Position numbers and translations under genes: made by a program. From IMG/VR virus record IMGVR_UViG_3300001102_000006: 64,000 nt of DNA; one strand, 5' to 3'. Shown here one piece after another: positions 21,885-63,281 of the stretch. A model generated the notes under the pieces. That model was given only the letters and a program-made list of their open reading frames with translations. It did no database searches and had not been told where the DNA came from. Each line of letters starts with the position of its first letter. The stretch's first letter is position 1. Source of the DNA: a virus.

Positions 21885-22604
21885 TCACTGAACGATTTCG
21901 TCTTCTTTGGCCACCATCGCCTGTAAGTCTTGACGTTGATCGGGTTCTTTGAGGCAGTAACCCCGCCCCCACACAGTGGAAATCAAACCGTCCGCGCCTG
22001 CTTCTGCGAGTTTTTTGCGCAGTTTACAGACAAAAACGTCCACAATTTTGACTTCGGGTTCATCCATGCCACCATACAAATGGTTCAGGAAGTGTTCTTT
22101 TGTGAGCGTAGTGCCTTTGCGCAGCGAAAGAAGTTCGACCATGCCGTATTCTTTGCCGGTCAGGTGTACCGGAGCGCCATACACGGTCGCGCTCTTTGCA
22201 TCCAGATCAACGACAAGGGGTCCGGTCTCGATTGTGGCGGATGAATGTCCTTTCGACCGGCGTACAACCGCCGTAAGTCGAGCAAAAAGCTCCACACGAT
22301 GGAAGGGAAGACCCATAACATCGTCAGCGCCTTCGGACAGAAGGGCGGCTGTTTCATCCGGATCGACAACGTTAACAAGGCACACGACTGGCGTGTGGAT
22401 GCGTGAGTTGCGTAGCCGGGTCAAAGTTTCTCGGGAGCCAAAAACGCCCAAGTTCATCAAGATCACATCATAGTCATATAGCGATGCCAGATCAAACGCT
22501 TCGTCAGCGGCGTCGGCAATGTACGGATTGAACCCCTTGCTGGACAAGGACATTTCAAGCAGGTTCGCCCGAGCAAGATTGTTTTCTACAACGAGGATTC
22601 GCAT
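21885..22604 (-). CDS. ctrA: CtrA homologue with a degenerate (non-phosphorylatable) receiver domain
   Basis: C-terminal HLTGKEY.M.ELLSLRKGTTLTKE.FLNHLYGGMDEPE.KI.DVF.CKLRKKL...TVWGRGY is nearly identical to CtrA; receiver has ENN for EDD, N at the D51 position and GLPF for TKPF. Confidence 0.93.
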   Translation of the reverse strand: MRILVVENNLARANLLEMSLSSKGFNPYIADAADEAFDLASLYDYDVILMNLGVFGSRETLTRLRNSRIHTPVVCLVNVVDPDETAALLSEGADDVMGLPFHRVELFARLTAVVRRSKGHSSATIETGPLVVDLDAKSATVYGAPVHLTGKEYGMVELLSLRKGTTLTKEHFLNHLYGGMDEPEVKIVDVFVCKLRKKLAEAGADGLISTVWGRGYCLKEPDQRQDLQAMVAKEDEIVQ

Positions 22605-22654
22605 TGTCTTCTCCTAGATATTTCAAGGGGGTGTAACTCAGTTTCTGCGTCTTG

Positions 22655-22669
22655 TCAAGCTCTTTTTAA
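22655..22669 (-). promoter_or_regulatory. Near-consensus CtrA box (TTAA-N7-TTGA) overlapping the -35 of the ctrA-like gene
   Basis: Minus strand GGTTAAAAAGAGCTTGACA. Confidence 0.5.
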
Positions 22670-23071
22670 CCTATCAAGTTCTCGAACTTCATCGACAATG
22701 CTTTGGACAAGGTAGTCAACCATGTAGGCCAGCGTCTCGTCGGCTTCACGGTTTACCGGCACCCCCAATGATTCACATATGGCTCCGGCGACATGCACAC
22801 TCTCGTGCGCCACAATCCCAATTCGTGGATTGGGCTGATTGAACAGAATGTAAAAGTAGGGAAGACCAGCGTCATTAAATATGGCACCGGCTTCCGCGTT
22901 AGCGGTGTCACTGAAATCTTCATCATCCAAGCGAATAGAGAAATTCTTTTTCGCGTAGCGAACAAAGTCTTTCCGAGAAAAGAAAACACCAACATCTGTT
23001 TTGAAGACATCAAGTGTAATCCCGAAAAGAGGTGCCTCGGGCTTTTTGAGTTTCAGGGCGTGTGTGCTCAT
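22655..23071 (-). CDS. Hypothetical protein with HExxH motif
   Basis: IVAHESVHVAG...EADETLAY. Confidence 0.55.
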   Translation of the reverse strand: MSTHALKLKKPEAPLFGITLDVFKTDVGVFFSRKDFVRYAKKNFSIRLDDEDFSDTANAEAGAIFNDAGLPYFYILFNQPNPRIGIVAHESVHVAGAICESLGVPVNREADETLAYMVDYLVQSIVDEVRELDRLKRA

Positions 23072-23203
23072 CGAATTTGAAGTCCACCCAGACACGAACG
23101 TGTGTACGTATCCCAGTGTCCTCCTTCAATCTCACATTTCAGGATGTACGCCGAACTGATGACGAACATCAGCAGGCACACAATTCCAAGTGCGTACCAA
23201 AAC

Positions 23204-24538
23204 TCACGCATTAGTATATACACGTGCTGCCGTTTGGGCGTAGATCGTCGCCAAGGCGAACACCTCTGCACGTTGGCTGGGGTTGATATTGTCTTCCATA
23301 TCCATTTGAAGGCGCGTTGCCGCGTGACGCATTGCTGCATCGGTGATCTCGGCGGCTGTGTCGCAGGCGCGCTGCATTTTGGTTTTGTGCTCAGATGCCA
23401 TGTCTATCTCCTAATGTCGTGGCCACATGAGAAGGACACGTGGTGAATTTTCCTGTGTCTCTGCCCATTCATCGTCAGTCATGTCCGCGTCAGCGGCGTC
23501 CCAGTTTGGGTCGTAAATATCCTCGGCGTCTTCGACACGAATGCCAATATCCGCACCCTCTGCCACACTGTATCCGTTGCCCTCCGGGTCTTTTTGCATC
23601 CAAACCTCCATATCATCAGGAAGTTGAGAAAGGACGGCTTTTAGCTGGGCAACGTTCATGTGGGTCTCCTTCAATGGTTCAGTGTATTTACGACGATTCG
23701 CGCGTCAGGTCAAGGGCGGTGCATACCTGTCCATTTCCGCTTGCGCGGCTTCAAGACGTTCTTTTGCCCGATCAAACCGGCGCACGCGCTCAAGTTCTGC
23801 AACCGCTTCCATCTCCGCCTTGGCTGCGGCAGAAATATTCAGGTGAGGCCAACGCTTGAACCACGCAATTTCATCCGATGTCGTCATAGACGGCTGCCCG
23901 TTGAACATGGAAGAAACGTGCGCCTTCATAGCGTGTTCATCGGCAAAGATCATGATGTCTTCATCGCCATCATCATATTTTCCCTGATAGTGCCATTGCG
24001 TGGCGTCGTGACGGTTGGACTTCAATTCAATATCAAACGGATTGCACGAGTGTGGAATGCCGGGACCTGTGGAAAGAACAAACGTGGGGTCTTCCCCAAT
24101 CAGGCGCTTGAAGTCGCGGACCCACTGGAACCGGCGTTCCAAAGCGCGGGCTTCCCCTTCAATTTCCTTGCGCATAGTTTCCATGTTTTGCTCTGTAACA
24201 CGCAGTTCCGTTCGCGCTGCGCCGATCTGCGAATTCAATTCGTCCAGCGCGGATTTTTTCTCCGCAACTGCTGCGGCGGTTTCGGCGTGTATTTTCCGCA
24301 CCCACGGTGTGCGTGACAGCTTAGCCAGCGGGATAGGGATCATATGATCTGCGACTTCTTCGTGCTCATCGAAGTCATCGCCGTGGTAGCTTGTGGTTTG
24401 GATAATAATGATTGGTGACACATACCCATGCTCACCTGCACGGTGGTCAAAGTAGTAATTGGTGCCATCCTGCGTGTAAACCGTATCACCTTTTTGGAAG
24501 TCGCGGTTGACAGCTTCGCCATTTGGAAACGTGCTCAT
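23204..24538 (-). CDS. Hypothetical ORFs (23204-23401, 23411-23659, 23705-24538 coiled-coil)
   Basis: RBS-preceded ORFs. Confidence 0.55.
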
Positions 24539-24671
24539 TTGTTTGTTCTCCTTTCGGTCCTTCCGCGTCTGCCATAACACATCCAGCATGGCTTAAACGT
24601 CAGAGGTTGTATTGTTTTGATGTGGCATCCCGTTCCATGGCAGGCCCAGCAAATTGAAACCACATACTCTT

Positions 24672-25124
24672 TCATATGCGTTCGCCACCGGGTTTCAATC
24701 GTACCGGGGCATCCGCCGGATCACAAGGATGATGTCCATGTGTGGCAAAATACTTGTCCCGCTTGATCAATTTGTTCTTCACCCAGAAGCCCCAGCGTCG
24801 GCGGGGTCGTCCTGCAAGCAAGATTGTAATTGTTCCCGGAACCACGTCGATGACGGCGTGTCGATAGCTGGCGGGGCGATATCGTATTGCCCCCGGTCCC
24901 AATCGAGCGTCCCCGTTTTCTGATCTATCGGTATAACCGCCTTTGACGACGAACGTCCAGAACCATTGGGGGTGGTCATGCATATGCCGAGCATCGTCGT
25001 CGGCGTGCCACTCGTGAACCCGCAAGGTCCAGCCGTTTCGAAATCCAAAAACACTTCTGTGAAAATACGGGCATTCTGACAGTCCACCGGGTTGCCTCCA
25101 TAGAAAAACAAAAGGGTTACGCAT
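24672..25124 (-). CDS. Cupin-fold protein
   Basis: RVHEWH..DD.RHMHDHPQWF...KGGY, RPASYRH. Confidence 0.7.
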   Translation of the reverse strand: MRNPFVFLWRQPGGLSECPYFHRSVFGFRNGWTLRVHEWHADDDARHMHDHPQWFWTFVVKGGYTDRSENGDARLGPGAIRYRPASYRHAVIDVVPGTITILLAGRPRRRWGFWVKNKLIKRDKYFATHGHHPCDPADAPVRLKPGGERI

Positions 25125-25596
25125 AGTGATCACAGCGCTTGCACTGATCGAGAACATCTTGGCGTGCCAACATCCCATCAGTGGCAGTATTCTGGTCTCG
25201 GCAAAGTACCCATTCAGAAAGGCCGTAGCGGTTTTCTTCGAACACATACATCTGCACATGCCGACCGGTGCTGCCTTCTTCAACCGGATAGCTCAAAAGA
25301 AAGCGTTGTGAAAGAACTTCCCATGCAGTTTCAGCATCAACAAACCAGCCCTCGAAATGCCCACGCAAGCAATTCCCAAGACGGAACTGCGTATCTTCTG
25401 GCTCCCATGCCACAGACATTTCAGTATAGCCACGCGGTGCTTCGGGTAGGGCCAACTTGAGAACATGCGTCATGCCCAGATCGACATCCCCGTCATACTT
25501 ACGTATGCCCAAGATGCGCGCCTCGTGTTGTCCGGCGGGCTTGCCATCATTTGTGTCCCACCAAACGGGCCATAAATCTCCTACTTTCGGGTACAT
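25117..25596 (-). CDS. Hypothetical protein
   Basis: AGGAG RBS before MYPKV. Confidence 0.55.
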   Translation of the reverse strand: MYPKVGDLWPVWWDTNDGKPAGQHEARILGIRKYDGDVDLGMTHVLKLALPEAPRGYTEMSVAWEPEDTQFRLGNCLRGHFEGWFVDAETAWEVLSQRFLLSYPVEEGSTGRHVQMYVFEENRYGLSEWVLCRDQNTATDGMLARQDVLDQCKRCDHYA

Positions 25597-25649
25597 GCGG
25601 GTCTCCTTGTTCTGATTTACCTGCACCTTACATTCGAGATAATGATTCG

Positions 25650-25940
25650 TCAAGGACGAAATGGCATCAATCCACTGACCACAAACTGAGGCATATCATC
25701 GATCCAGATGTCCACTTCTTCGCCTTCCAGCTTCGCCATCTCCTGCTTGCTGCGTCGTGCGCAATAGATCACACGGTCACACAGGCGGTGATATCGTTGG
25801 TCTTCAATAGGTTCTTCGGCATACCGAAAGGTCGTGCCTATGATTCGAAAGCCTTTTCGTTTTAGCAGCGACATAGCTCCGAACCATGCATCCGGATCAG
25901 TCGTGAAAGTATCGTCATAGTCCAGTCCAATTGTGTGCAT
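25650..25940 (-). CDS. Small HAD-superfamily protein
   Basis: GLDYDDT motif I and IWIDD motif IV. Confidence 0.7.
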   Translation of the reverse strand: MHTIGLDYDDTFTTDPDAWFGAMSLLKRKGFRIIGTTFRYAEEPIEDQRYHRLCDRVIYCARRSKQEMAKLEGEEVDIWIDDMPQFVVSGLMPFRP

Positions 25941-25944
25941 CAAT

Positions 25945-26463
25945 TCACTTCCACCAATGTACAGGCCCCGCCTGTATGATTCCACAGGGAAGGTCTTGCC
26001 CACCCATTTCAAACTTGTCCTCGACACGCTCATATGAGGGCCACAGAGACAGGTCAACGTTCTGTTCCTGCACCAGTGCCACAACCGTGCCGCCATGCCT
26101 CAGAAAGCGCTGTGCGTGCTGTATGTGGTCATCTGAGCGCGCAGGTGGGCACATGATCACCGCATCAAACATCGGAAGCTCCGCCGGGACATTCCGCCCA
26201 GCGCCATCAGGTTTCCACGGCTTGATGTCCAAAAAGTTTCTACGATAAGTGCGTTCACAGTCGTGCGCTTGCAACTCGCGATGCAGGTCCGCATTCAATT
26301 CAATCGAAATGACGCGTCGTGTGAATTCGTAGATCACTTTGACCATGCCACCAGAGCCTGCGCTGGGTTCGAGGACACGCATATCGGGGCGGATGCCTGC
26401 CATCTCGCACATCCGGCGCGTCAAGTGTTCAGGTGCCCGCGTAGCGGGGAGCGATCTTGTCAT
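25945..26463 (-). CDS. Class I SAM-dependent methyltransferase
   Basis: VLEPSAGSGG, IELN, NFL, FDAVIMCPP. Confidence 0.75.
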   Translation of the reverse strand: MTRSLPATRAPEHLTRRMCEMAGIRPDMRVLEPSAGSGGMVKVIYEFTRRVISIELNADLHRELQAHDCERTYRRNFLDIKPWKPDGAGRNVPAELPMFDAVIMCPPARSDDHIQHAQRFLRHGGTVVALVQEQNVDLSLWPSYERVEDKFEMGGQDLPCGIIQAGPVHWWK

Positions 26464-27095
26464 GTGAAGACTCCCAATTGCGTGAGAAGTGTAAGCGCCG
26501 AATCCTGCTTTCGCCGCGTCGGTGCAAATGTTCTGCCCAGCGCTGTGTGGAGCGCCACTGCGTGGCGGACCTGTGCCAGTGTGGGAGGCACATCACCTTT
26601 TGCCACATTGCACGGCACGCATGCGGGCATGGTGTTGTTTTCGAGAGAATATCCCTCAGATTTTGGGAAGACGTGATCTCGTGTCGTCTGGCTAAACGGA
26701 ACTTTCTTGCCGCAAAGGTAGCAGCACTTATTATTTCCTACCCAGAGAATGTGGAGATTTAATCGTTTGTTGATCGAGCGCTTCTGCGTGCGTCGAGTCG
26801 TCTTGCCTAGCCCATTGCGAAGTTGCTTGGCATGCTCACAGATGCTGATGTAGATCGACTTCGGTATTGGAAATTGAACGGAAGGAAATAATTCCAGTAC
26901 GCCCTCTTTCGACAAATAGAAGTTTGCGGGGCGACCGATTGCAAAGGATGCAATCTCGTCCCAGTTAATGGTCCGCCGGGATAGATTCGAACTACCGACA
27001 CCCCGTGCTTCATAAGAAGGCTCGCTTGCGGCGCTATTGTCAGTCGTGCTTTGTACTCCGACCATGGTACCAGAACTAGCTAAGGACGTTCCCAT
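26460..27095 (-). CDS. HNH endonuclease; its start lies inside the tRNA-Phe insertion
   Basis: CCYLCG, TRDHVFPKSEG, NTMPACVPCNVAKG; GGAGG RBS 8 nt before the ATG at 27095. Confidence 0.8.
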   Translation of the reverse strand: MGTSLASSGTMVGVQSTTDNSAASEPSYEARGVGSSNLSRRTINWDEIASFAIGRPANFYLSKEGVLELFPSVQFPIPKSIYISICEHAKQLRNGLGKTTRRTQKRSINKRLNLHILWVGNNKCCYLCGKKVPFSQTTRDHVFPKSEGYSLENNTMPACVPCNVAKGDVPPTLAQVRHAVALHTALGRTFAPTRRKQDSALTLLTQLGVFT

Positions 27096-27202
27096 GATTG
27101 TTTCCTCCACATTTCTTATCGTTGCGCAGACCCGACGCTAATCAGACCCTTTTTCACAAACTCCATTTCTAACGGGTGCTCTACCAACTGAGCTACCGGC
27201 GG
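26969..27202 (-). tRNA. tRNA-Phe(GAA) interrupted by a 158-nt insertion in the anticodon loop (exons 27202-27171 and 27012-26969)
   Basis: 5' CCGCCGG-TA-GCTC-AGTTGGTA-GAGC-A-CCCGT-T and 3' TGAAGC-ACGGG-GTGTC-GGTAG-TTCGAAT-CTATC-CCGGCGG-A-CCA; 32+44=76 nt with all stems pairing. Confidence 0.88.
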
Positions 27203-27327
27203 ATATAGTAGGTTCACCCTCCGTGACGAACAAGCGCCCTGCCGAGTGTTGCCGTGAACCCTGTCCCAGTGATGGCAACGATCTGGGATGAGACTTACCT
27301 AAACGATGGTAAGTGATTCGTCAAGGG

Positions 27328-27804
27328 CTAAACACCCAAAACCGCAGAAAGTGTCGAAAAGCTTTTCGCATACTTTGCGTTCAGTCGTTCCCGACGCTCT
27401 GCATCCATGCCTGACTTGTCGCCGGACATGTTTGCCATGTTGTCGGCCCACTTCACCTTGATTGCGGCGCGGTTGCCGCTGGAAATGATGCGAAGAATGT
27501 TGCCCTCGTAGGTCAGTGAACGATCTTTTGTGAGCAGGCCAACAATTTCCGCCACGCTGTCACCAAACTGATCCGCAATGTCTTGCAAGGTGAATGGCGT
27601 GTCTTCGACAACATCGTGCAGCAGTGCCGCAATGATCTCATCTTCGGTCGCGTGGTTTGCGAACGGACCATTTGCCACCGTCTCCGCAACTTCCAGCGGG
27701 TGCGTGTAGTATGGGCGTGCGCCGTAACGCTGCTCACGGTGCGCGACAACACAGAATTCAAAAGCTTCGGCTACCCGTGGAATGCGTAAGAAAAGCTGCA
27801 TCAT
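27328..27804 (-). CDS. HD-domain RelA/SpoT-type (small alarmone) hydrolase
   Basis: H.EQRY...PYYTHPLEVA, AALLHDVVEDT, VKWADNMANM. Confidence 0.85.
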   Translation of the reverse strand: MMQLFLRIPRVAEAFEFCVVAHREQRYGARPYYTHPLEVAETVANGPFANHATEDEIIAALLHDVVEDTPFTLQDIADQFGDSVAEIVGLLTKDRSLTYEGNILRIISSGNRAAIKVKWADNMANMSGDKSGMDAERRERLNAKYAKSFSTLSAVLGV

Positions 27805-29629
27805 TCCACCTCCAAGGGAGCCGCACACTGGGCCATGCTGCCGTCAGGCATGTGTCGGTGTATCGGGACACCGCCCGCGCGCAGGCAGGCGTCTCTGTCG
27901 CGCTGCCACGCATTGTCGTGCGTCATTGCGTCAGACACCATCCACACCATACCGCCGACCAATACAACGATCACGAATATTGCAAAGGGGCGGGGATCAA
28001 GCATCTTCGTACTTTGCTTTGAGCCGCGCCAGTTCTGCCAGTTCCGCATCCATTGCAGCCTGTTTTTCGGCTTGGGTCATAGCGGATACGATGGCTTCCG
28101 CGTCAGTGCGTGCTTGGTCGATCCATGGCGGCATGACAAAAGTCATCTCAGCCTCAGATTTGAAGACTTCACCCGCATGTGCCCATGCTCGCCAAATGTC
28201 CCCGCTTTCCTCGCCGGAACCATCGAGTTGGAAGATAACACCGGGGTGATTCTTGCTCACCTGCGCTGCGTGATTTTCCCAGTCATACCACTTGGCCTCA
28301 TGAATCTCGAACGTGTTGTGTCCGGTCATGTCGACGCTATATCCAGACGTTTCAGCCAAATCTTTGGCCGCAGCTTGGGCGGCGGCGATGCTCTTGCTGG
28401 TCGCCTCGACTTCGAAATGTGTGTAATATCCCATGGGTTCCTCCTATGCAGGTTTCGCCATATTGGTATCCGATTCGCTTACGACAGTCAAGCCACTACT
28501 TACGTCCTTTGCAGACATAAGCATAGCCAACACCACGATTGGCGTGTTGATCACTTGCTCATATGTGAGGTTGAGGCGGCGGGCGAGTTCTTGAAAATGG
28601 CGTTCGGTGTGCTCTGGGTTGCGCATATTGATTCTCCTTTGTTGTTTCTAAGGAGAACATGGCACACAGATTTTAGCGGATCAAGAAACAGATACCTAAG
28701 ATTTTAATCCAAGGCATTCGATCACAAATTCGGGCCATTTGTTTTCGACGTAATCTTCTTCAAGATCGGTGTTCTGCCGCATCCAATTGCGCACTTGCAT
28801 CCCTTCCCGGAAATGAACAGGATGTCCAATGCCCGTAGTAGACGGAATTACCAAGGGAATTTCGCCGTATTCAATCCACCATTTGGAAAACAATTGTACA
28901 CCGTCTTCTCCCAACCATTGGACAAAATCTTTCTTTGTCTGTTCCTCAATTTGAGGCCAGTGCATGACTTTGTATTTCAGGTGGTCTCCGATCTGGGCGG
29001 CGGCAGCGCAATTCGCTTTGTCTTTGCCGTAAGTCGTAACGGATTCCCACCCGTCATCACCAACAACGCGACCAATGATAATTATCTGGTCGTAGCCATG
29101 GTCTTTGGCGACTTTCTCGGCGGCTGAAATAGGAATATCTTTCATTTGTAGGCCCAAATCCTTGCTTGTTTCTCCGGGCCTAAATCTTCTACGTAATTCA
29201 TGGCCTCGTTGAACGTGTAGGTTCCAATACCGGAATCATTCACGTCGATCACATAGCCCTGTGCGTTCGGACGCCAGAAGCCGTTCTCTGTGCGAATATG
29301 CACGAAAAGTTGTTGCTGCCACCAGATGGCGCGCTCACTGTCAGGATAGCGTTGAAAATAAGCGGGGCGGACCCAACAGAAGCCCTTCCACTCTCCAATC
29401 AGTGTGCGGCGGCTCATCGCTTGTCCCTCTTGAATACTGTGCAGTCAAGGCCCCCGTGTTCACACGTACACCCCATGCACCTTCCGGGTTCCCAACCGGG
29501 CTGTGCCGCCAGCCATCCAGAACGGAATGCATCCGCCAAGATGTTCGGCTCATTCGCGGGCATGCCATGACAGATCAGGGCAGATTGAATTTCAGGTGTG
29601 TTGAAATTCGGGTTGTTGTGCATACTCAT
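27801..29629 (-). CDS. Run of small hypothetical ORFs (27997-28434, 28444-28626, 28696-29145, 29142-29417, 29414-29629)
   Basis: Coupled ORFs with AGGAG RBS. Confidence 0.55.
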
Positions 29630-29656
29630 GGGTTCCTCCTGTTCTAGGATATAACC

Positions 29657-30295
29657 TTAATGCATGTATAACGACGATTCGTCAATACCATTCTTGTGAA
29701 TTTCTCCGTGCATCCAATGTGTGTCAGTCTGGACGTGATTGGGTCGCACAAACTTCGCAACACTCACGCCGAAGTCATCATAGTAAAATTCGTCTGCAAC
29801 ACGAACAACAAAACCCTCGTGCCCTTCTTCGTGTAGTGCCGCAATTTTAACCGGGTCCCACTGTCCATTATATAGAACCGGAACCGTGTCCATGTTCAGT
29901 CTAATGCACCAACCACGTGTATCTTTCCACGACAAACACACATTGTCAGGGTTCCACACAGAAATGAGCGGCAGATACGTGGATAGTTGCGTATAGGCGA
30001 TTGAATGTTGCGCATACAGATTCTCTGCGCAAACTCGATAGCCATTTTGAAGGAGATAAGAACGGCGTGTCCAATAGTTCTTGGCCCAATCTCGTGTCCA
30101 ATGCGTTCGCCCGTCTATGCTCCGGGCGTGCGTGCCGCCGTCAGAGTATCCCGTGAAGTTCTCGCCGTCCATTTTTCGTGTGACAACAACGCGTTTGCCG
30201 TCGAAATGTGACGTATCTTTTAGCACACGATCATCGTTCGTAGCTCCGGGGGAGGACGGCAAGTGTGGTGTGCGGGGATATTTATGTCGTTGCAT
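29657..30295 (-). CDS. Second RNA ligase (small Rnl2-like family)
   Basis: KYPRTPHLPSSPG, VTRKMDGEN, HARS, CAENLYAQHSI, HEGFVVR, AKFVR. Confidence 0.85.
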   Translation of the reverse strand: MQRHKYPRTPHLPSSPGATNDDRVLKDTSHFDGKRVVVTRKMDGENFTGYSDGGTHARSIDGRTHWTRDWAKNYWTRRSYLLQNGYRVCAENLYAQHSIAYTQLSTYLPLISVWNPDNVCLSWKDTRGWCIRLNMDTVPVLYNGQWDPVKIAALHEEGHEGFVVRVADEFYYDDFGVSVAKFVRPNHVQTDTHWMHGEIHKNGIDESSLYMH

Positions 30296-49514: not shown

Positions 49515-49520
49515 AGCCAC

Positions 49521-55116: not shown

Positions 55117-55365
55117 ATGGCCCTCAATCTCACACAAGCGCAAATCAATGATCTTTGGGAAAAAGGTTACCGCCCTTATGAGATTTACACGAAAAACCCC
55201 GCGCCGGTTGAATACTATGGCGAACAAAAACAGGCGGGCGAAATTGGCGGCTGGGATATCAAGTTTGTTTTCGCGCGCCGCGAAACGCTGGAAACCTTCC
55301 CTTTCTTTGATTGCGTGATAGGGCAAGACGCGGTTTATTCCTGCACCGAAATTCACCACGGTTGA
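55117..55365 (+). CDS. Hypothetical early protein
   Basis: Own promoter, AAGGA RBS, terminator. Confidence 0.65.
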   Translation: MALNLTQAQINDLWEKGYRPYEIYTKNPAPVEYYGEQKQAGEIGGWDIKFVFARRETLETFPFFDCVIGQDAVYSCTEIHHG

Positions 55366-55415
55366 CAAACAAAGAAACCCTGCTAACGCGGGGTTTCTGA
55401 TTCGTTCCGCGCGCT

Positions 55416-55487
55416 AAAAAAGAGAACGGACTCCGCACTCCTAACCCGTCCCCTACTTGGCGCATCCGCCTTTCCTGACCTCACAAA
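55416..55487 (-). ncRNA. Repeated small RNA, copy D
   Basis: TTGCGA-17-TATGGT promoter, same motifs, GGCG-GATG-CGCC hairpin, terminator with T6. Confidence 0.65.
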
Positions 55488-55604
55488 TACCATACCGCGA
55501 CCCTAAACGATTCGCAACACAAAAAACAAGGCAACGGTAAATTATTATGCTTGCGAATCGCCTGCACATATGCGACAAAGGGTTATCAAGGAAAGGAACC
55601 CACA

Positions 55605-56156
55605 ATGTTTGATGCAATCGAAACTCGCGACGTTGGCGAATTCACTGTCAAGGTTATCCCTGACGATTCCGGCTCGGCTGAAAGCCCTCGTGATTGGGCA
55701 CCGCTCGGAAAATTCTTTGGCTTTCACAATCGCTATGCGTCACCTGATAAGCCCCCGGCACAAGACCCGCAAGAGGCGCGCGCCATTGCCGAACGTGGCG
55801 ACAATATTTGCCTGCCCGTGTGGATGTATGACCATTCCGGCACGTGCTACCGCGCGGCGGAAACAAACCCGTTTTCCTGCCCTTGGGACTCCGGTTGCTT
55901 TGGGTTTATCTACATCACGCGCCGGGAAGCCCGCAACATTTTTGGCTGGGCGCGAATCACTGAGGAACGCCGCCAGCAAGTGCTGCAACACCTCAAGTCC
56001 GAAGTCAAGGAATATTCGGCATGGGCCAATGGGGAGGTTTACGGCTTTGTCGTGGAAGACTCCGAAGGTGATGAGGTGGATTCTTGCTGGGGCTTTATCG
56101 GTGATCCTGAATATGCCATGGAAGCCGGAATCGACGCGGCGGGGTGCGCGGCTTGA
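55605..56156 (+). CDS. Conserved-looking phage early protein
   Basis: ESPRDW, PVWMYDHSG, CPWDSG, W.NGEVYGF, DSCWGF. Confidence 0.65.
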   Translation: MFDAIETRDVGEFTVKVIPDDSGSAESPRDWAPLGKFFGFHNRYASPDKPPAQDPQEARAIAERGDNICLPVWMYDHSGTCYRAAETNPFSCPWDSGCFGFIYITRREARNIFGWARITEERRQQVLQHLKSEVKEYSAWANGEVYGFVVEDSEGDEVDSCWGFIGDPEYAMEAGIDAAGCAA

Positions 56157-56418
56157 GCACTGCAAACATGCTGCGCACGTTATTGGCGTGCGCAGAACGC
56201 CCCGACGATAAACGCCTGAATTCGCACCTGTCAGAGTCTGACATTGCTGAAACAATTCGCCTTGCAATCGAGTGTCTGGAAACAGAACAATTCAAGGCGG
56301 ATGAATCGGAAAAGTTGCGCGCCGTGCTAGTCGATCTATCACGCGCCGCCATTGCAACGGACTCGCCTGAATTCGTGGCAATCCCCGCCGCTACGTGGCA
56401 AACCTTGCTGGACTCCAT

Positions 56419-56434
56419 TGTTTCACGTGAAACA
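56419..56434. other. parS: parS centromere palindrome 3
   Basis: TGTTTCACGTGAAACA, in a 47-bp block matching copy 2 at 46/47 positions. Confidence 0.9.
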
Positions 56435-56519
56435 AGGTAACGGTAAATTACTATTGACACCGAACAACGAATCGCCCTATAAAGGGTTATCGAAACAACA
56501 AACCCAAAGGAACGAAAAA

Positions 56520-58082
56520 ATGGGCACTCGCGCTGCATACACCTTCAAAGATGACACTGGCGTTTTCCACGTCTATAAGCACTGGGATGGATATCCCACG
56601 GGCGCGGCAATGCACCTGAAAGCTACGCTGGAATCCGGCAAGGCTTGGGCACTGCCCCGCTATGAAGCGGATGAATTCGCCGCCGCGTTTATCGCTGCAA
56701 ACAAAGATTCGGACGGCGATATTCGCTTGCTGAAAAGCCCCCGTAAAGTTGGCGACATTGAATTCGCCTATACCGTATGGCAGGCGGGTGATGGCGAATT
56801 GATGATCCGCGTGCAATCCGTCAATAACTGGGATAAGTGGCAGGCGGAAACCCTGTGGCGCGGCAAGCTGGCAGAATTCCTTGATACCGGCGCGGAGTCC
56901 ATCGAATGAAACCCCTTGTCCTATTCCTCACCATATGGGGCGCTGACGCGCCCCACGATGGCCCAATGGTCTACGTCATGGGCGGAAACCTGACGCCGCA
57001 AGCCTGCACCGCTGGCATGGTTGCCCTTGATCGTATGGCAACGCTTGTGGGCGGGTCTGTATCGTGCGAGTTTGACCTTGCAGAACCCCACGACTCACCC
57101 GATGCACCGCTAGTGCGCTTCCCCGCTTGTGAGTATGAGGACTCCACCAATTGCATATGGAATGCGCAAGAACGGGGTAACGGTATCGGGCAATCCTTTT
57201 ACAACGTCTATGGCGATGTGTTGCCCATTGACTGGAACAACGAATCGCAATAACATCTAAGATGTGACAAAACGAAACCCAAAAGAAAGCCAAAGCTATG
57301 ACCCACGCCCCGACCCTGTTACCAACGCAAGGCACCGCAATTCAGATGGCGGATGTCTATTTCAATCTACACCGGGGGGTGTGGTCCTGCCGTTCGCGCA
57401 AAACAGGGCGAGTCGAGCATCACGCCCGTGCCGTTGTTTCGCTCGATCCTGTCGCCATGGTGGTGCAGCAAGCGGGCCGCGCCAAGGTATGCCGCACGGG
57501 GCAAAAGAATGTGCATGCATTCGCCCGCATGGCGCTGGGCGTTGTATCCGATGACGTGCAGGGCTGGGCTGATTATGCCAATGCAATCCCCGGCCTTGTG
57601 CGCCTGTCATATTCCCCTACCTATGCGGGGCACTTCTATCGTGTCGATACGAAAGAACCTGTGACCCACGTGCAGGGGCTGTATATGCTGGCCCCCTGTG
57701 GTGCGCCGCCCCGCGTGCTGGCCTATCTGTAAGATGTAGGGCAGGGCAAAATTACTATTGACCCTGCCCCACGAATCACCTATAACAGTAGGTATAGGAA
57801 CACAGACACACAAGGACAGAGACAATGGCATCCATCGACACATACATCTACATCGAGCACAACGGCACAGAGTATGAGTGTGCTGTCACTGTGGAAGGTG
57901 ACGTTAGCCATGGTGGCAGCAACAGCTATGGTAGCGATGAGCCTGAATGGACAGAGGTGGATGACGTGACCGTATACAACGCACGTGGCAAGCGCGTGAG
58001 CAAGCGCCTGATGGATAAGATTGATGCAAAGCAATGGGATCACATGACAGACCTGCTAGTCGAGGCTGATGCAAGCTGGTGA
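56520..58082 (+). CDS. Early hypothetical ORFs (56520-56909, 56906-57253, 57298-57732, 57825-58082)
   Basis: Promoters and RBS; VYKHWDGYP; VYFNLH. Confidence 0.6.
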
Positions 58083-58346
58083 TGACAAGTCAAGTGTGTT
58101 GCGATGATGTGATCGCAACACACAAAGAAAAGACTTGACAAAATTAAAAGGGGAGGGACCCAACGGGGGGACGGGGGTAGGGGTGATTCGCGCGCGTAGT
58201 AGCTGTGTGCTAGGCCAAGACCAACTTTGGGTTGTGGTAGCTGTCGGCACCTGTTAGACCAACCGGGGGACCCAGCCAGAAAACAGACCCCCCACCCCCT
58301 ATTGAAAAATCGGCTCTACAAAAATTTCATATTTTTCAATATCAGG

Positions 58347-58361
58347 TTAACAGAGTATTAA
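58347..58361. promoter_or_regulatory. CtrA box TTAA-N7-TTAA(C)
   Basis: GTTAACAGAGTATTAAC, intergenic, upstream of 58458. Confidence 0.6.
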
Positions 58362-58457
58362 CAAATCTGGACCGGGACAAGAACATACCGTAAAATAAGG
58401 TACTTGACACAAATTTATCTGTACGTTACATTCACAAGACACAACGCAGGAGGACCC

Positions 58458-58970
58458 ATGAAGATCATCGGCGCACATGTGAACAAGGCTGACGCCTCTG
58501 ACGTAGCACGTAAAGTCAAGAGATGCATCAGGCAGCTACGCCTCAAGCAATACGAACTGAATATACCCGCTGACGCGGGCACCATCGCAACACAAATTCT
58601 CCACGTCAGAAGCACTCCGGGTATCCTGTCCAGAGGCGGTGCCAACACTCTAAAGATCAACCTTGCATACTGGCAGTCTGGAAGGCATATGTGGACAGAG
58701 TATAAGAGATTTGACAAGGACCCAATCATTGGACGCATAATGGTCAATGACGCTGATGATTCTCTGTGGTGTTTGGTTGCACACGAAGTAGCCCATCACG
58801 TTCAATACCGGTACTGTCCGCGCGTAGCGCGATTCAGTGCTCGGTCATCTAAGCCGTATACCAAACCACATGGATATTGCTTTCAGGATGTGTACCGGTA
58901 TCTTCGGCGCGATCTGATCAATCCGATGATTGAGAACAAGCGCGTAAGCCTTACGAACGGCAGATTGTAA
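58458..58970 (+). CDS. HExxH (SprT-like) hypothetical protein
   Basis: LVAHEVAHHVQY...KPHGYCF. Confidence 0.6.
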   Translation: MKIIGAHVNKADASDVARKVKRCIRQLRLKQYELNIPADAGTIATQILHVRSTPGILSRGGANTLKINLAYWQSGRHMWTEYKRFDKDPIIGRIMVNDADDSLWCLVAHEVAHHVQYRYCPRVARFSARSSKPYTKPHGYCFQDVYRYLRRDLINPMIENKRVSLTNGRL

Positions 58971-59196
58971 GCGCGTCAGTCTGGGAGGTTCCGTCTAGGT
59001 CGGCCCGCACTCACTTTTCGTTTGACATGCCAAAAGACATCTGGTACGCATATGGTCTAAGGAGAAAATCATGGTCACAATCACTGTCACAGGTTTCTGG
59101 GGTGCCGTCATGTTCGGCGCAGGTGTTGCTCTCGGCGGAATGCTTGTCGGTATCGGCATCGGTATTCTTGGATTGATCCTCGGCGTAAACCGGTAA

Positions 59197-59649
59197 ATGG
59201 GCTGGGCTGTCGGATATGACGTTGGCTGGCAGCGGGACATCGGTTACGGTGTTCCGGCGCTCTGCGATCACCCTGAATCGGATGAAGTGATCGACCGAGG
59301 TCTTGCCTATGTATGCGGCGGAGACGTTTATGGCGGGGAACACGGCTGCGGTCTGTTCTTTTCCAGCAAACATCTTTTCTATGTTCGGAATGAAGATTTG
59401 CCGGACGGAGAGAAGTGGTCGCCGCAGCTATGTGAACGATGCGCCAAAGGCTTTCAGTTGCTGGGAACCGATGGGGAATACAAGGAAGACCCGCCTGAGC
59501 CGTTCACGCCAAAACCCGATACCTTGGAATGGATTACGCACAAGATGAATTGCCCATCGTGGGCAGACTGGCGCGATAAGCATCCATCCTTCGTTGAAGA
59601 ACACGCGGATAAGATCGATCCTGATTGGAAACGAGATGAATACGACTGA
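59197..59649 (+). CDS. Hypothetical Cys-rich phage protein
   Basis: RDIGYGVPALCDHP...IDRGLAYVCG...GCGLFF. Confidence 0.6.
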   Translation: MGWAVGYDVGWQRDIGYGVPALCDHPESDEVIDRGLAYVCGGDVYGGEHGCGLFFSSKHLFYVRNEDLPDGEKWSPQLCERCAKGFQLLGTDGEYKEDPPEPFTPKPDTLEWITHKMNCPSWADWRDKHPSFVEEHADKIDPDWKRDEYD

Positions 59650-59970
59650 CGAAGAAGTCACTGGCTACTACATGCCCGAAATCGATGAGGAAGAACTGAG
59701 ACGTGATCGACCCAAAAAACCCAAAACAGATAAAAGACGCCGCGCGCAAATTCGTGCGACCGCTGGTATGGTCGGACGGAGAGTTTGACGGAAACCCAAC
59801 TGGCGAATGGTATGCGTATGGTGTATCCGAGCACGTCATCTACAAAGACGGAAAGCTCTTTGCCTACTGGTCCGAAGGTGAGGGGCCAAAATACGATACG
59901 CTGATTGAGGCGCAAGAAGCGGCAAACGAAAACCACGTATCTGAGGTGATGCGTCTTTTCAATTGGATGA

Positions 59971-60312
59971 ATGATGATTGAACTTTTTCTTTTGCTGGTG
60001 TTCGGGCACTTTATGGCAGATTATGCCTTTCAATCCGAATTCATGGCATTGGGAAAGAACCGCCACGATCCGCTACCGAATGCGCCATGGTATCATCTTC
60101 TGTTCGCTCACTCCGCAATCCACGGTGGCATCGTCGGGATCATTACCGGATACTGGATCATAGGTCTTCTTGAGTTCGCTTGCCACATGGTCATTGACGA
60201 TCTACGCTGTGCGAAACGACTGACCTACACACAAGACCAGATGCTGCATGTCGGATGTAAAGTTGTATGGGTCTCGATCACTGTTGTTATAGGTCTTCCA
60301 GCCTTTCTATAA
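59971..60312 (+). CDS. DUF3307 family membrane protein
   Basis: GHFMADYAFQ, LFAHSAIH, HMVID, DQMLH. Confidence 0.8.
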   Translation: MMIELFLLLVFGHFMADYAFQSEFMALGKNRHDPLPNAPWYHLLFAHSAIHGGIVGIITGYWIIGLLEFACHMVIDDLRCAKRLTYTQDQMLHVGCKVVWVSITVVIGLPAFL

Positions 60313-60657
60313 AAAAGATGACCCTTTCTCAAAAAAGTTGTTGACATGCCGGATCACTTAACGTATGTATGTCTCATCAACGAAGCGGGATGCCTACTTG
60401 CCCGCAGACGCAACGCCAACATGGAGGCGACAATGACAAAACGATTTATCACGCCTCTGATGGCGACACACTCCCCCTTGCAACCCATTCCGGGTTCAGG
60501 TTATCCAGACACGCGAGAGATCATGCCGGTGCATCGGAAGCATCGGCCCGGTATCCCGGACATAGATTGTCCATCGGTCCCCGCCAGTTCGAATTCGAAT
60601 ACCGAACTCCAACTGGCCTAAGTGCTCTCCGAATGCCCCGGCAAAATGCCAACACAT

Positions 60658-60733
60658 GGGGCCTTCGTCTAGCGGTCTAGGACGCCTCCCTTTCAAGGTG
60701 GAAACGCGGGTTCGAATCCCGTAGGCCCTTCCA
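60658..60733 (+). tRNA. tRNA-Glu(TTC)
   Basis: Cloverleaf, CT-TTC-AA loop, GGTTCGAATCC, encoded CCA. Confidence 0.92.
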
Positions 60734-60754
60734 AAATTTAATAGAGAGGTACAT

Positions 60755-61033
60755 ATGGACCTTCTCAATCTGCACCCTCCAATGCCCGAGGGCAAGGAAC
60801 ATCTCGTCTATCGCGACTTTCCAAAAGTGCGCAAAGGACTGTTTGATTGGTTTCTTGAACAGCTTGAACCGTATGAGCTTGAGGTCTTGACCTACGCTCA
60901 ATACGAAACCGAACACGGGCTTCTTGCCCGAGGACAGATTTGGGTTAACCCTGACGGGTTAGCGCTATTGCCAGAAGCCCTTGAACGGGATATGGCTAAA
61001 CTAATCGCTGCGGGTCATATTGATCCGGAGTGA
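60755..61033 (+). CDS. Hypothetical protein
   Basis: GAGG RBS; lies between tRNA genes. Confidence 0.6.
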   Translation: MDLLNLHPPMPEGKEHLVYRDFPKVRKGLFDWFLEQLEPYELEVLTYAQYETEHGLLARGQIWVNPDGLALLPEALERDMAKLIAAGHIDPE

Positions 61034-61058
61034 GGGGTTCGCCCCGCGCTCTTTGACA
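61034..61058 (+). promoter_or_regulatory. rrn-type boxB/boxA antitermination-like element
   Basis: GGGG-TTCG-CCCC hairpin followed by CGCTCTTTGACA. Confidence 0.55.
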
Positions 61059-61271
61059 ATTTGGTGTTCTGAACGTTGCTCCACGGATGTGGGTTAAACA
61101 ATACGGCAATGTGCGCTGATAGGGGCCTCCCAACGGGGGTTATCCGATGACCGGCGTCCCTTACGGGGAACAATTATTTGGCGCGCATCCGGGATATTCC
61201 TGTGTTCGTTTCCGTGTTTGCCTCCTTAGTGCTTTGGCACTTCTCGGATGCGCACCTAATGATTGTTCTAT

Positions 61272-61343
61272 CGAGACATGGTATGGTGGGTGTAGGTTGC
61301 GCAACCTCTCACGCGGATGGTTCAATTCCTCCGGTCTCGTCCA
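61272..61343 (+). pseudogene. Degenerate tRNA-like gene, anticodon unassignable
   Basis: CGAGAC/GTCTCG acceptor, GGTTCAATTCC T-arm, TCCA end; poor D-arm and irregular anticodon arm. Confidence 0.5.
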
Positions 61344-61478
61344 AAATTAGCGGAATCACGAGGTTCTTGGCACAGACGCCCCAACGTCCCTGCCCTGATA
61401 CTGGTCGTGCCGTTGGATTGGGGTCCACGAGAGTTCCCGTCTGTAAGTCGGGCATAAAATACTCAAGTTTTCTTATTT

Positions 61479-61554
61479 GTGTCTGTGGTGATGCTGGTGC
61501 CCACATCGGATTGAAGTCCCGAAGATGAAGGTTCGATTCCTTCCGGACACACCA
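61479..61554 (+). tRNA. tRNA-Phe(GAA) with G37
   Basis: GTGTCTG/CGGACAC acceptor, TTGAAGT loop, GGTTCGATTCC, ACCA. Confidence 0.85.
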
Positions 61555-61679
61555 ATACTACGTGCTGCTGAACAAGTGGCACCAACTTTGCAAGGTTCAT
61601 TCGGGAGCGTGGTGGCGCTTGACTGGAACCAGTCTGGATCAGATGACGTAAAATATGCCCTTGCAACTTCCACCGCTTT

Positions 61680-61751
61680 TGTGTCACCGCATGGTGCGGA
61701 CATCGGTCTCATAAGCCGAATGACTGGGATCGTTACCCAGTGACACAACCA
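61680..61751 (+). tRNA. Atypical tRNA with CAT anticodon (Met/Ile2)
   Basis: TGTGTCA/TGACACA acceptor, TCGGT-CTCATAA-GCCGA, T-loop ATCGTTA, short D-arm. Confidence 0.65.
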
Positions 61752-62180
61752 AATAAATGGTACTGTCCAAAGATACCGGGCAGCTAAGACGCCGAGAGAG
61801 GGAGATCGGTAGTGCCGAACGCTTGACACAACAGACGAATCGTTCTATACGACACACAACACGGAGCAGCGGGGAAACGTCCTGATCCCCAGTGGTGAGG
61901 TTGTGTGCAGCCGAGGCTAAGCTAATGACATAGGAACTTACCGAGATGCCGGTCAACGCCCGCTATCGGACAAAACTATGATCAAGCTGATCGTCTCCGC
62001 AGGAGCCGCCAAGCAATAACACAAAGCATGGGCGTGACTTGGTTGGTTGAGAGGAACCAACACTTTTTTCTGAGGCGCATCCCCCGACCAAAATAGAGGC
62101 GGTTTAGGGACCGTTCCGATCCCTAGTCGGACGAGGTGTATCACCAAGCGAGGCGGGGTGCGCCTGAGAAAGAAGTGATT

Positions 62181-62270
62181 GACGTGGTGACGGAGCGGTA
62201 ACGTGCCGGATTGCAAATCCGAGACACTGGGTAGCACCAGTCGTGGGTTCAAATCCCACCCACGTCTCCA
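62181..62270 (+). tRNA. tRNA-Cys(GCA) with a long variable arm
   Basis: GACGTGG/CCACGTC acceptor, TTGCAAA loop, 20-nt variable region with ACTGG/CCAGT stem, U73, CCA. Confidence 0.85.
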
Positions 62271-62323
62271 TTAAATAGTAACCTTTCAGTGGTCTTATTG
62301 GCTTAGCTGAAAAGGATACTCCG

Positions 62324-62644
62324 ATGAAAAAGCTCCTACTCGCCGCAGCAGCGGTTATTGCCCTGTCTGTGACGCCATTTGCTGTTGCTGCACAACAGCA
62401 AAACTGTGGACCACGAGAAGTTGTCGCAGAACGACTTACGGATAACTACGGCGAAACGCGTCAAATGCGTGCCTTGGGAGCGAACAACACTCTTGTCGAA
62501 GTCTGGGCCAGCACAGAAGGCAGCGACCCTACGGGGTCTTGGACTATCACTGTTACTCGCCCTAACGGGGTCACGTGTTTGGTTGCATCCGGACAGGCGT
62601 ATGAAGCGCTGAGTGAATCTCTGGTTGAGGGCGACCCAACTTAG
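62324..62644 (+). CDS. Small secreted protein of a conserved alphaproteobacterial type
   Basis: Signal peptide; CGPRE...L..NYGE...VEVWAS...GSWTI..T.PNG.TCLVASG. Confidence 0.7.
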   Translation: MKKLLLAAAAVIALSVTPFAVAAQQQNCGPREVVAERLTDNYGETRQMRALGANNTLVEVWASTEGSDPTGSWTITVTRPNGVTCLVASGQAYEALSESLVEGDPT

Positions 62645-62654
62645 GAACCTTACC

Positions 62655-62930
62655 TTGGAATATTTCGCCGTTATTCGAATTGCTTTCGGGCAGTACATTC
62701 TGACTGTTTCAGAGACCGAGCGATCTTGGTCAGACACTGACATCGCTGTTCGCGCCGAGCGCTTGCAACAAGAAATTGCGTCCCAAGATTGGGTTCGCGT
62801 CATGGACACTTCGATGCAAATTCGGAATGACTCCATCCAGTGCATGTTTACAGAGACCTATTCGGTCGAGAACGATGTCGTCGCGCTGGTCAGCACGGAC
62901 GGACTGCCTACTTTCAATACTGCATATTGA
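62655..62930 (+). CDS. Hypothetical protein
   Basis: ORF between 62644 and the DUF2793 gene; start uncertain. Confidence 0.45.
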   Translation: MEYFAVIRIAFGQYILTVSETERSWSDTDIAVRAERLQQEIASQDWVRVMDTSMQIRNDSIQCMFTETYSVENDVVALVSTDGLPTFNTAY

Positions 62931-62933
62931 TCC

Positions 62934-63281
62934 ATGGCAGACACACCGAATTTGAGCTTGCCGCTAATTGCGGCGAGCCAAGCACAAAAGCATGTGACTG
63001 CTAATCAAGCCACACTCGGTCTTGATGCACTGTCACAGCTTAGCTGTATTGATCGGAACCTATCGGCTCCGCCGGGATCACCCGGAAACGGTGATACCTA
63101 CATCGTCGGATCATCACCTACGGGTGCATGGGCCGGACAAGCGAATTCCGTCGCCTATTTCTACGGCGGCGCATGGTATTTCTATCCTCCGAAAGAGGGA
63201 TGGATTGCATACCTTCAAGACGAAACAACCTACCGGGCCTTTAATGGAACGAGTTGGGTTCTTCTTTCAACGCTAATATAG
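62934..63281 (+). CDS. DUF2793 domain protein (GTA/phage tail-associated)
   Basis: TPNLSLPLIAASQAQKHVT.N.A...LD, PP..P..GDTYIV...PTGAWAGQ...A....GAW....PKEGW. Confidence 0.85.
   Translation: MADTPNLSLPLIAASQAQKHVTANQATLGLDALSQLSCIDRNLSAPPGSPGNGDTYIVGSSPTGAWAGQANSVAYFYGGAWYFYPPKEGWIAYLQDETTYRAFNGTSWVLLSTLI

Follow-up and report, generated by a model that had tools for sequence, protein, structure and literature searches.

What does a phage do with a regulator derived from CtrA, a GafA-like gene, host-type parS sites and a series of promoters bearing the motif CGAATC: are they parts of one device for taking over the host cell cycle, or were they gathered separately? The question is raised by the IMG/VR virus record IMGVR_UViG_3300001102_000006, of which a stretch of 64,000 nucleotides (the window) was analysed, amounting to about 44% of a phage genome of about 146 kb, with the remaining 82 kb outside it. 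A first-pass annotation had joined these elements, together with an H-NS homologue and a DUF2793 gene, into a single integrated hijacking kit. The reading we favour, with moderate confidence, is that several separate host-regulation modules accumulated in a DSS3Φ8-like phage of a roseobacter-group host, namely the promoters, the parS sites and a pair formed by the CtrA-derived protein (CtrA*) and the GafA-like protein.

The large terminase (terL) protein of the window shared 65-69% identity with its counterparts in Roseobacter phage DSS3P8, Ruegeria phages V10 and RpAliso, DSS3_MAL1 (MAL1), Phaeobacter phage MD18 and Rhodobacter phage RcXuper, each a siphophage of about 147 kb, with ΦCbK-like phages as remoter terL matches. 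The GafA-like protein of the window (P0123) was also recorded on a contig of 145,870 bp, and window DNA was present in sequencing runs from a marine, algae-associated metagenome; no RNA sequencing run contained the phage. On account of the terL identities, the contig record, the alphaproteobacterial transfer-messenger RNA and the metagenomic runs, the phage is best classed as a new DSS3Φ8-like (ΦCbK-related) siphophage with a host among the marine Rhodobacterales, in the roseobacter group. No relative at the DNA level was found by megablast of 10 kb of the window against 50,697 phage records. Five complete relatives were compared (DSS3P8, RpAliso, MAL1, MD18 and RcXuper), together with metagenomic loci; for the 114-kb and 87-kb metagenomic contigs that carry CtrA*, co-occurrence was judged from 20-38 kb of each.

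The distribution of the elements among these relatives is uneven. DSS3P8, RpAliso and MAL1 have CGAATC promoters and parS sites and lack CtrA*, the GafA-like gene, H-NS, DUF2793 and GcrA; MD18 has CGAATC promoters, H-NS and GcrA and lacks parS, CtrA*, the GafA-like gene and DUF2793; RcXuper has the promoters and none of parS, CtrA*, the GafA-like gene, H-NS, DUF2793 or GcrA. Among the metagenomic loci, L024 carries the GafA-like gene, H-NS and three parS sites, L023 carries the GafA-like gene, H-NS and one degenerate parS, and the 87-kb contig carries CtrA* and the GafA-like gene, with neither an H-NS match nor an exact parS in the 38 kb covered. The only pairing that recurs is that of CtrA* and the GafA-like gene, in the 87-kb contig and, as a CtrA-derived protein with a GafA homologue, in the roseophage RDJLΦ1; the elements are not co-conserved as a set. 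The idea of a single integrated kit failed on this co-occurrence check across relatives and on the lack of enrichment of CtrA boxes described below. The elements instead look like a mosaic of separate modules rather than one co-evolved circuit, with different members of the group having captured different host cell-cycle regulators (in MD18, a GcrA domain and H-NS).

The module shared by the whole group consists of σ70-type promoters that contain an oriented GANTC motif. GANTC was depleted over the window as a whole (179 observed against 277±17 expected) and was denser between genes (5.1 against 2.4 per kb, p about 1e-5), where 31 of 51 sites read CGAATCA or CGAATCG. Strand-specific CGAATC(A/G) marked 27 σ70-type promoters (Table 1), either fused to the -35 hexamer as TTG(A)CGAATC (17 observed, 1.6 expected) or set in the spacer as TTGAC-N8-10-CGAATC (10 observed, 0.17 expected), and five further copies stood 1-8 nt before a ribosome-binding site. 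Orientation was absolute in all three classes when compared with the inverted motif (17:0, 10:0 and 5:0), and placement was at about -29, at about -20 or just past the likely transcription start. Each of the five complete relatives contained 10-28 copies of TTG(N)CGAATC per genome, concentrated in early regions, against 0-1 for the control. Read on the opposite strand, CGAATC(A/G) is TGATTCG/CGATTCG. GcrA, a cofactor of σ70, prefers the methylated site TGATTCG (more broadly YGAKTCK), and regulon sites have their centres at -20 or between +2 and +30 (Haakonsen et al. 2015, PMC4647560). The first-pass annotation had spoken of GANTC sites in many σ70 promoters, and the pattern proved stronger than that, the motif being the GcrA consensus itself.

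We suggest that these early and middle promoters, of host σ70 type and with an asymmetric CGAATC(A/G), would be read via CcrM methylation and GcrA, so that transcription of the phage would follow the cell's CcrM/GcrA state. They resemble the GcrA regulon promoters of Caulobacter in carrying the same TGATTCG/YGAKTCK within σ70 promoters, where one window class lies at about -20 and another shortly past the start (PMC4647560); the 10 spacer-type sites fit the -20 position and the approximately five leader-type sites fit the downstream position. Unlike the Caulobacter promoters, the dominant class in the window joins the motif directly to the -35 hexamer (TTGCGAATC or TTGACGAATC, at about -29). 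An alternative is that CGAATC is unrelated to CcrM and GcrA and serves as an extended -35 or spacer element for a phage transcription factor, a sigma-like protein or a particular host sigma, GANTC being coincidental. Such an element would sit well with a motif that is asymmetric and strictly oriented, that is conserved in phages of three host genera and whose commonest position, fused to TTG, is not one described for GcrA (PMC4647560). It would leave to coincidence that the 7-mer is the top-ranked GcrA site TGATTCG/CGATTCG in 31 of the 51 intergenic GANTC sites, that the spacer class and the class just after the likely start occupy both of the published GcrA positions, and that GANTC is underrepresented within genes and enriched between them; MD18 and ΦCbK-like phages, moreover, encode GcrA homologues (PMC9437464). 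We regard an element unrelated to CcrM and GcrA as unlikely.

From the motif and its placement we infer that phage transcription depends on CcrM methylation and on host GcrA. None of the five complete relatives encoded a CcrM-type methylase, and only MD18 among them had a GcrA-like gene; tblastn with the MD18 GcrA-like protein matched neither the window nor the loci from CtrA*-bearing relatives, and motif screens of the window revealed neither a GcrA motif nor a convincing methylase. The window thus differs from ΦCbK-like phages with GcrA homologues in having no GcrA gene. The MD18 protein (MT270409.1, 108218-108436; locus L020) carries an N-terminal GcrA domain only.

A second module, present in part of the group, is formed by parS sites. 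The window contains three exact copies of the 16-bp palindrome TGTTTCACGTGAAACA, against a chance mean of 0.43 in shuffled sequences when up to three mismatches were allowed. The parS sites of the first-pass annotation were confirmed and came out stronger than it had stated, and each of the three exact 16-mers lies 19 nt upstream of a -35 hexamer. Three exact copies were found in DSS3P8, two in MAL1, three in L024, and one exact copy with two one-mismatch copies in RpAliso; there were none in MD18 or RcXuper. The spacing from parS to the -35 hexamer was 19-21 or 29-30 nt in every case, two classes that differ by one helical turn, with a promoter of the form TTGAC or TTGCGAATC and with differing flanks. 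In L023 the promoter was kept and the parS carried two central changes. Searches of the five complete relatives found no ParB_N domain, and a motif screen of the window gave no ParB box II. The window sites are accordingly described here, from their sequence and setting, as apparently orphan, host-type, promoter-linked parS sites.

ParB-family proteins also regulate or silence transcription at the KorB/OB operators of RK2 and the partition sites of P1 and N15. The window resembles these systems in having a ParB-type site at a fixed distance from promoters of a mobile element. RK2, P1 and N15, however, encode their own ParB or KorB with their own site sequences, whereas the window carries the universal chromosomal parS and no ParB was found in the complete relatives, so that the host would supply the protein. 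No relevant paper came up in literature searches on phages with host-type parS, which is weak evidence of novelty. We propose that host ParB, as ParB-CTP clamps, would load at the parS sites of the early region, and that the loaded ParB would modulate nearby promoters, or be titrated, or be used for ParA-driven partition of phage DNA. An influence of ParB on the parS-linked promoters is suggested by the conserved helical phasing.

The sites may instead have no transcriptional role, their proximity to promoters being incidental: episomal phage DNA could be partitioned by host ParAB to both daughters in a carrier or pseudolysogenic state, or the sites on replicating phage DNA could act as a sponge that draws ParB, and MipZ with it, from the host origin and so blocks segregation and division. 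Three clustered, perfect centromere sequences in a phage in which no ParB was found are what partition or a sponge would predict, and the immunity repressor annotated in the syntenic region of RcXuper indicates that the group may be temperate-capable. The exact parS 16-mer was also present on at least 119 IMG/VR viral contigs with G+C of 0.30-0.72 (loci L025-L143), mostly without ParB box II, which suggests a general use by phages; among the matches listed, 26 contigs had 2-5 copies, and 2 of the 119 had a ParB box II motif in the flank examined. Orphan parS may accordingly be wider than this phage group, although single matches in so large a collection can be chance. Neither a centromere nor a sponge, however, needs the spacing of 19-21 or 29-30 bp that recurs in four to five phages with different flanks, and L023 keeps the promoter though its parS is altered. 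A purely non-transcriptional role is, on this evidence, doubtful.

Some parS-linked promoters drive short transcripts with 'gaggtcaggaa' near their start. These comprise 53479-53560(+) and its paralogues in the window, L004/L005 in DSS3P8, L009/L011/L013 in RpAliso and L012 in MAL1; the window copy at 53479-53560(+) ends in a terminator-like hairpin, and the start sequence is conserved across the phage group. In the Ruegeria phages, inverted GCTTGAAGC/GCTTCAAGC repeats flank parS-linked promoters (DSS3P8 L003-L005, MAL1 L010/L012, RpAliso L009/L011). These repeats, which do not flank the parS promoters of the window, are candidate operators of a phage repressor.

The third module is specific to a lineage and pairs CtrA* with the GafA-like protein. 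CtrA* has 239 amino acids and OmpR-type domains (Pfam), and full-length comparison with cellular proteins that bear the name CtrA gave 54-58% identity. It scored 280.5 bits against the NCBIfam CtrA model NF045991, with the next family at 111.8 bits, and remained under the equivalog cut-off of 350 bits; we class it as CtrA-derived and not as an equivalog. Identity to cellular CtrA was 74-77% in the DNA-binding domain and 39-46% in the receiver. Within the receiver, E7 and N8 replace the acidic pair D/D, N51 replaces D51, V replaces the switch Thr/Ser and L replaces the conserved Lys, and there is also a loop deletion of two amino acids. Four metagenomic proteins (P0003, P0004, P0005 and P0007) share D51N/S, K-to-L/T/V and the loop deletion, and members of this clade occupy the same gene neighbourhood as the window copy; because relatives share both the residue changes and the neighbourhood, CtrA* is taken to form a stable clade and not to be a decaying copy. 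That CtrA* cannot be phosphorylated, and is in this sense the phosphorylation-independent CtrA of the first-pass annotation, is well supported at the sequence level by the replacement of all phospho-residues of the receiver beside a conserved DNA-binding domain. A search of IMG/VR for relatives of CtrA* gave RDJL-type or partial matches only.

Given its conserved DNA-binding domain, CtrA* probably recognises TTAA-N7-TTAA. Two exact copies occurred in the window (40708 and 58347) against 0.45 expected, and two or more were present in 6 of 100 shuffles; with one mismatch allowed there were 7 copies against 14 expected. CtrA boxes as a class are not above chance in the window. No exact box was found in 69.7 kb sampled from three other CtrA*-bearing phages, no CtrA box lay upstream of ctrA* or of the gafA-like gene in L021, and the five complete relatives had 0-1 exact boxes per approximately 147 kb, no more than the control pattern. 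The claim of CtrA boxes at three promoters was not upheld, either by these counts or by conservation in relatives. In the one-mismatch box over the -35 of ctrA*, the second half is the -35 hexamer itself and the TTAA position reads CTAA/TGAA in L014/L015; it is most likely only an A-rich upstream stretch together with the -35 hexamer. The L021 intergenic region orthologous to that of the exact box at 40708-40722 has no equivalent site. The triple half-site at 58336-58361 is the best single candidate for a CtrA site. The one-mismatch site at 48434-48448 is identical in L024 and exact in L023 (TTAACATATTCTTAA), with nothing in L021; it overlaps a probable -10 and, missing in L021, was not adopted as a conserved CtrA box.

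The gafA-like gene is convergent with terL, which it overlaps by 20 nt, and this arrangement is repeated in L021, L023 and L024. GafA homologues are the proteins annotated DUF6456 (Sherlock and Fogg, PMC9638019). The window protein scored 27.2 bits against DUF6456 (PF20057; cut-off 26.3) over residues 234-264 only, and its relative P0125 scored 48.4 bits. An exhaustive phmmer search gave 97 matches, many of 300-400 amino acids and matched in two stretches; DUF6456 was present in all 10 of the matches scanned, 7 of which also had an N-terminal helix-turn-helix (HTH). Residues 3-57 were 40-57% identical to the N termini of dozens of HTH+DUF6456 proteins, and a match to PHROG 31864 supports the N-terminal HTH. 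The protein aligned end to end with HTH+DUF6456 proteins, with the motif GLExxEKxMxWxxRSxK invariant in that alignment. Its central block also aligned (Y129 and R170 invariant) in a protein about 110 amino acids shorter than GafA, in which residues 87-212 form the central region that binds RNA polymerase omega (PMC9638019). Taken together, the alignments identify it as a genuine though shortened member of the GafA/DUF6456 family (270 against 382 amino acids). The first-pass annotation was right about both the family and the place beside terL of its GafA-like activator gene. The open reading frame at 43940-44485, which abuts terL on its upstream side, was rejected as the GafA-like gene: it had no Pfam or NCBIfam match, its PHROG matches were to small terminase subunits and it is syntenic with terS.

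Two further features accompany the gafA-like gene. A protein with an OGFr_N-like domain, encoded at 46912-47529(-), always directly precedes it in the window, L021, L023 and L024, and may be a functional partner of the GafA-like protein. Just upstream of the promoter of the gafA-like operon, a non-coding block of about 200 nt (48170-48400, minus sense) without an Rfam match is highly conserved in the same four phages, even though their GafA-like proteins share only 34-84% identity, and may represent a small RNA or a leader.

In this third module CtrA* would act mainly on TTAA-N7-TTAA sites of the host, mimicking unphosphorylated CtrA or competing with CtrA~P. Action on host sites is most likely because the DNA-binding domain is almost unchanged and the phage has no enriched sites. 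For the GafA-like protein the simplest role would be that of a late-gene activator or antiterminator belonging to the phage, likely the ancestral function of GafA; GafZ, the Caulobacter counterpart of the C-terminal part of GafA, is an antiterminator (bioRxiv 10.1101/2024.11.20.624540). Action of either CtrA* or the GafA-like protein on phage late genes found no support in the sequence of the window.

The pairing of a GafA/rcc01865 homologue (gp38) with gp37 'ctrA' in RDJLΦ1 was already pointed out by Hynes et al. 2016 (PMC5026251). RDJLΦ1 resembles the window phage in having a GafA-family protein and a CtrA-derived protein that would be incapable of phosphorylation: gp38 aligned over its full length with the window GafA-like protein (24% identity, E 4e-12), and gp37, a DNA-binding domain only, was 55% identical to the corresponding domain of CtrA*. 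RDJLΦ1 belongs, however, to an unrelated genus of 63-kb phages (Xiamenvirus). There the two genes are neighbours; in the window ctrA* and the gafA-like gene lie 24 kb apart. The RDJLΦ1 CtrA has no receiver, whereas CtrA* keeps a full-length receiver fold with every phospho-residue replaced, and in the window phage the GafA-like gene has a fixed place beside terL. GafA of Rhodobacter capsulatus combines a DnaA-like N-terminal HTH, a central region and a C-terminal DUF6456 (PMC9638019), so that the same families are involved; the window protein differs in its length, its score barely over the Pfam threshold and the absence of any gene transfer agent (GTA) structural cluster. Unlike the R. capsulatus gafA system, the phage gafA-like promoter showed no conserved CtrA site.

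A different comparison is offered by ΦCbK-like phages, vB_BsubS-Delta and other alphaproteobacterial phages, in which intergenic TTAA-N7-TTAA sites are densely clustered and host CtrA reads them in what has been called 'lytic deferment' (Mascolo et al. 2022, PMC9437464). The window phage is likewise an alphaproteobacterial phage, with ΦCbK-like terL kinship, whose early genes appear to be wired to a host cell-cycle regulator. The CtrA-box phages encode no CtrA, whereas the window phage encodes its own and has boxes at chance level.

The H-NS homologue of the first-pass annotation was confirmed (Table 1). H-NS homologues occupy the same place in L023 and L024, adjoining GP88, and there is one in MD18 (23573-23686). 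The DUF2793 gene is present as well, and its place in a regulatory kit was lost: the open reading frame matches only the N-terminal 112 positions of PHROG profiles 220-640 positions long, some of them of tail-fibre families, and DUF2793 occurs in the tail-fibre protein Rcc00171 of the R. capsulatus GTA (PMC5026251). DUF2793 is a structural tail-fibre domain and not a regulator. It was absent from the five complete relatives, and together with the H-NS-like protein it looks like an independent accessory addition.

The least probable of the explanations considered, and a speculative one, is the integrated circuit, in which the phage would sense the cell cycle through GANTC methylation and ParB on its early promoters and CtrA* would then act through the GafA-like protein on the late programme, as one co-adapted kit. 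In its favour, every element maps to one host network, the GcrA-type motif and parS are found at the same early promoters, transcription of gafA in R. capsulatus needs unphosphorylated CtrA (PMC9638019), two unrelated phage lineages combine a CtrA-derived protein with a GafA-like one, and the gafA-like operon region has a TTAA-type site upstream of it in the window, in L024 and in L023. Against it, CtrA boxes are not enriched and are missing from the sampled 69.7 kb of CtrA*-bearing relatives, DSS3P8, RpAliso and MAL1 have parS and the promoters without CtrA*, the GafA-like gene, H-NS or DUF2793, the 38 kb of the 87-kb contig that bears the CtrA*/GafA-like pair has no exact parS, DUF2793 is structural, and co-occurrence in the complete isolates examined is no better than chance. 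Of the convergence on one host network that the first-pass annotation had seen, what stands is that most of the parts exist and point at CtrA, GcrA-CcrM, ParB and GafA; the boxes do not.

Several points nevertheless weigh against the modular reading. Both exact CtrA boxes are intergenic and one falls within the triple half-site at 58336-58361, and it is possible that CtrA* has a few genuine targets on the phage. The semi-conserved TTAA site at 48434-48448 would fit, if weakly, a link from CtrA* to gafA within the phage. The commonest class of CGAATC promoter (17 sites at about -29) fits neither position described for GcrA in Caulobacter, and another factor could read the motif. A ParB, methylase or GcrA of the phage's own could also be encoded in the 82 kb beyond the window.

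Table 1. Coordinates, within the 64,000-nt window, of the regulatory features and neighbouring genes.
Feature	Position	Strand	Remarks
CCA-adding enzyme	13926-15074		by synteny with L014-L016
Thg1-like enzyme	18325-19137		by synteny with L014-L016
ctrA*	21885..22604	-	CtrA-derived OmpR-family regulator; degenerate receiver, conserved winged-helix DNA-binding domain
One-mismatch box TTAA-N7-TTGA	22655..22669	-	over -35 of ctrA*
HNH endonuclease gene	26460-27110	-	Pfam HNH_5
HD-domain protein	27328-27828
RNA ligase	29657-30295
Cyclic-phosphate-processing receiver domain	33833-34183
Exact TTAA-N7-TTAA	40708..40722		25-39 nt upstream of the start codon of the 431-amino-acid gene 39388-40683(-)
Small terminase subunit	43940..44485	+	PHROG terminase small subunit E 2e-11; syntenic with RcXuper_206 and RpAliso_212 (annotated terS)
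Large terminase subunit (terL)	44469..46109	+	Pfam Terminase_6N/6C
gafA-like gene	46090..46902	-	270 amino acids; N-terminal HTH, central region, C-terminal DUF6456 motif
One-mismatch CtrA-like site TTCACATACTCTTAA	48434..48448	-	about 270 nt upstream of the gafA-like operon promoter
parS 1	51351..51366		19 nt upstream of TTGACT (51326-51331, minus strand)
H-NS-like protein	51420..51737	-	105 amino acids; Pfam Histone_HNS (PF00816) E 2.2e-12, 46.9 bits, residues 70-100
parS 2	53414..53429		19 nt upstream of TTGACA (53449); spacer CGAATC; promoter of small terminated transcript
parS 3	56419..56434		19 nt upstream of TTGACA (56454); spacer CGAATC; promoter of gene 56520-56909
Triple half-site TCAA-N7-TTAA-N7-TTAA, 11-bp register	58336..58361		about 45 nt upstream of TTGACA at 58405
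DUF2793 gene	62934..63281	+	115 amino acids; Pfam E 3.8e-27; inside tRNA cluster
27 σ70-type promoters with strand-specific CGAATC(A/G)	10052..61841
TTG(A)CGAATC promoters, examples	16333, 18306, 25653, 27324, 29685, 50769, 51816, 52964, 54799, 55055, 55551
TTGAC-N8-10-CGAATC-N2-4-TAnnnT promoters	11789, 23713, 28491, 48164, 50050, 53449, 56454, 57228, 57758, 61823

The window has about 51% G+C and short, tightly packed genes in long same-strand blocks, with five tRNA genes and a permuted alphaproteobacterial transfer-messenger RNA (tmRNA). Rfam searches over 46-64 kb named tRNAs and the tmRNA only, with no small transcript matched, and Pfam and PHROG scans of about 50 open reading frames between 22.6 and 63.3 kb revealed no additional regulator. 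A large RNA-repair and tRNA toolkit lies at 13926-34183 (Table 1). The window gene at 38618-39388(-), of 256 amino acids, matches in position and length L021 15902-16693 and L024 17554-18324, both of which bear a precomputed AcrVA2-like tag (PF26125); a Pfam search with the window protein gave no match at E 0.01.

That alphaproteobacterial phages listen to the host cell cycle is already known from the CtrA boxes of ΦCbK-like phages, the GcrA homologues of ΦCbK and the CtrA fragment and GafA homologue of RDJLΦ1. Orphan, promoter-linked parS sites and promoters with the GcrA consensus appear to be new: an entire phage group has the methylation motif preferred by GcrA at fixed, oriented promoter positions, and perfect host centromere sites stand phased beside early promoters in phages without ParB, for which no describing paper was found in literature searches. 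Although the window phage itself is represented by metagenomic sequence alone, the questions raised by the parS sites and the promoters are open to direct test, since DSS3Φ8 and its host Ruegeria pomeroyi DSS-3 can be cultivated. In a bolder and tentative version, which we consider improbable as a whole, DSS3Φ8-like phages would gate their early programme on host ParB (as a co-regulator at parS two or three helical turns upstream, also drained from the host origin) and on GcrA at CcrM-methylated TGATTCG, and in one lineage the CtrA*/GafA pair would reproduce the GTA axis and might be its viral ancestor. Also new is a second, unrelated phage lineage in which a CtrA apparently blind to phosphorylation and a GafA-family protein are inherited together. 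The pairing of CtrA* with the GafA-like protein is a fresh instance of a published one, and strengthens the idea that the CtrA-GafA axis of GTAs has viral roots.

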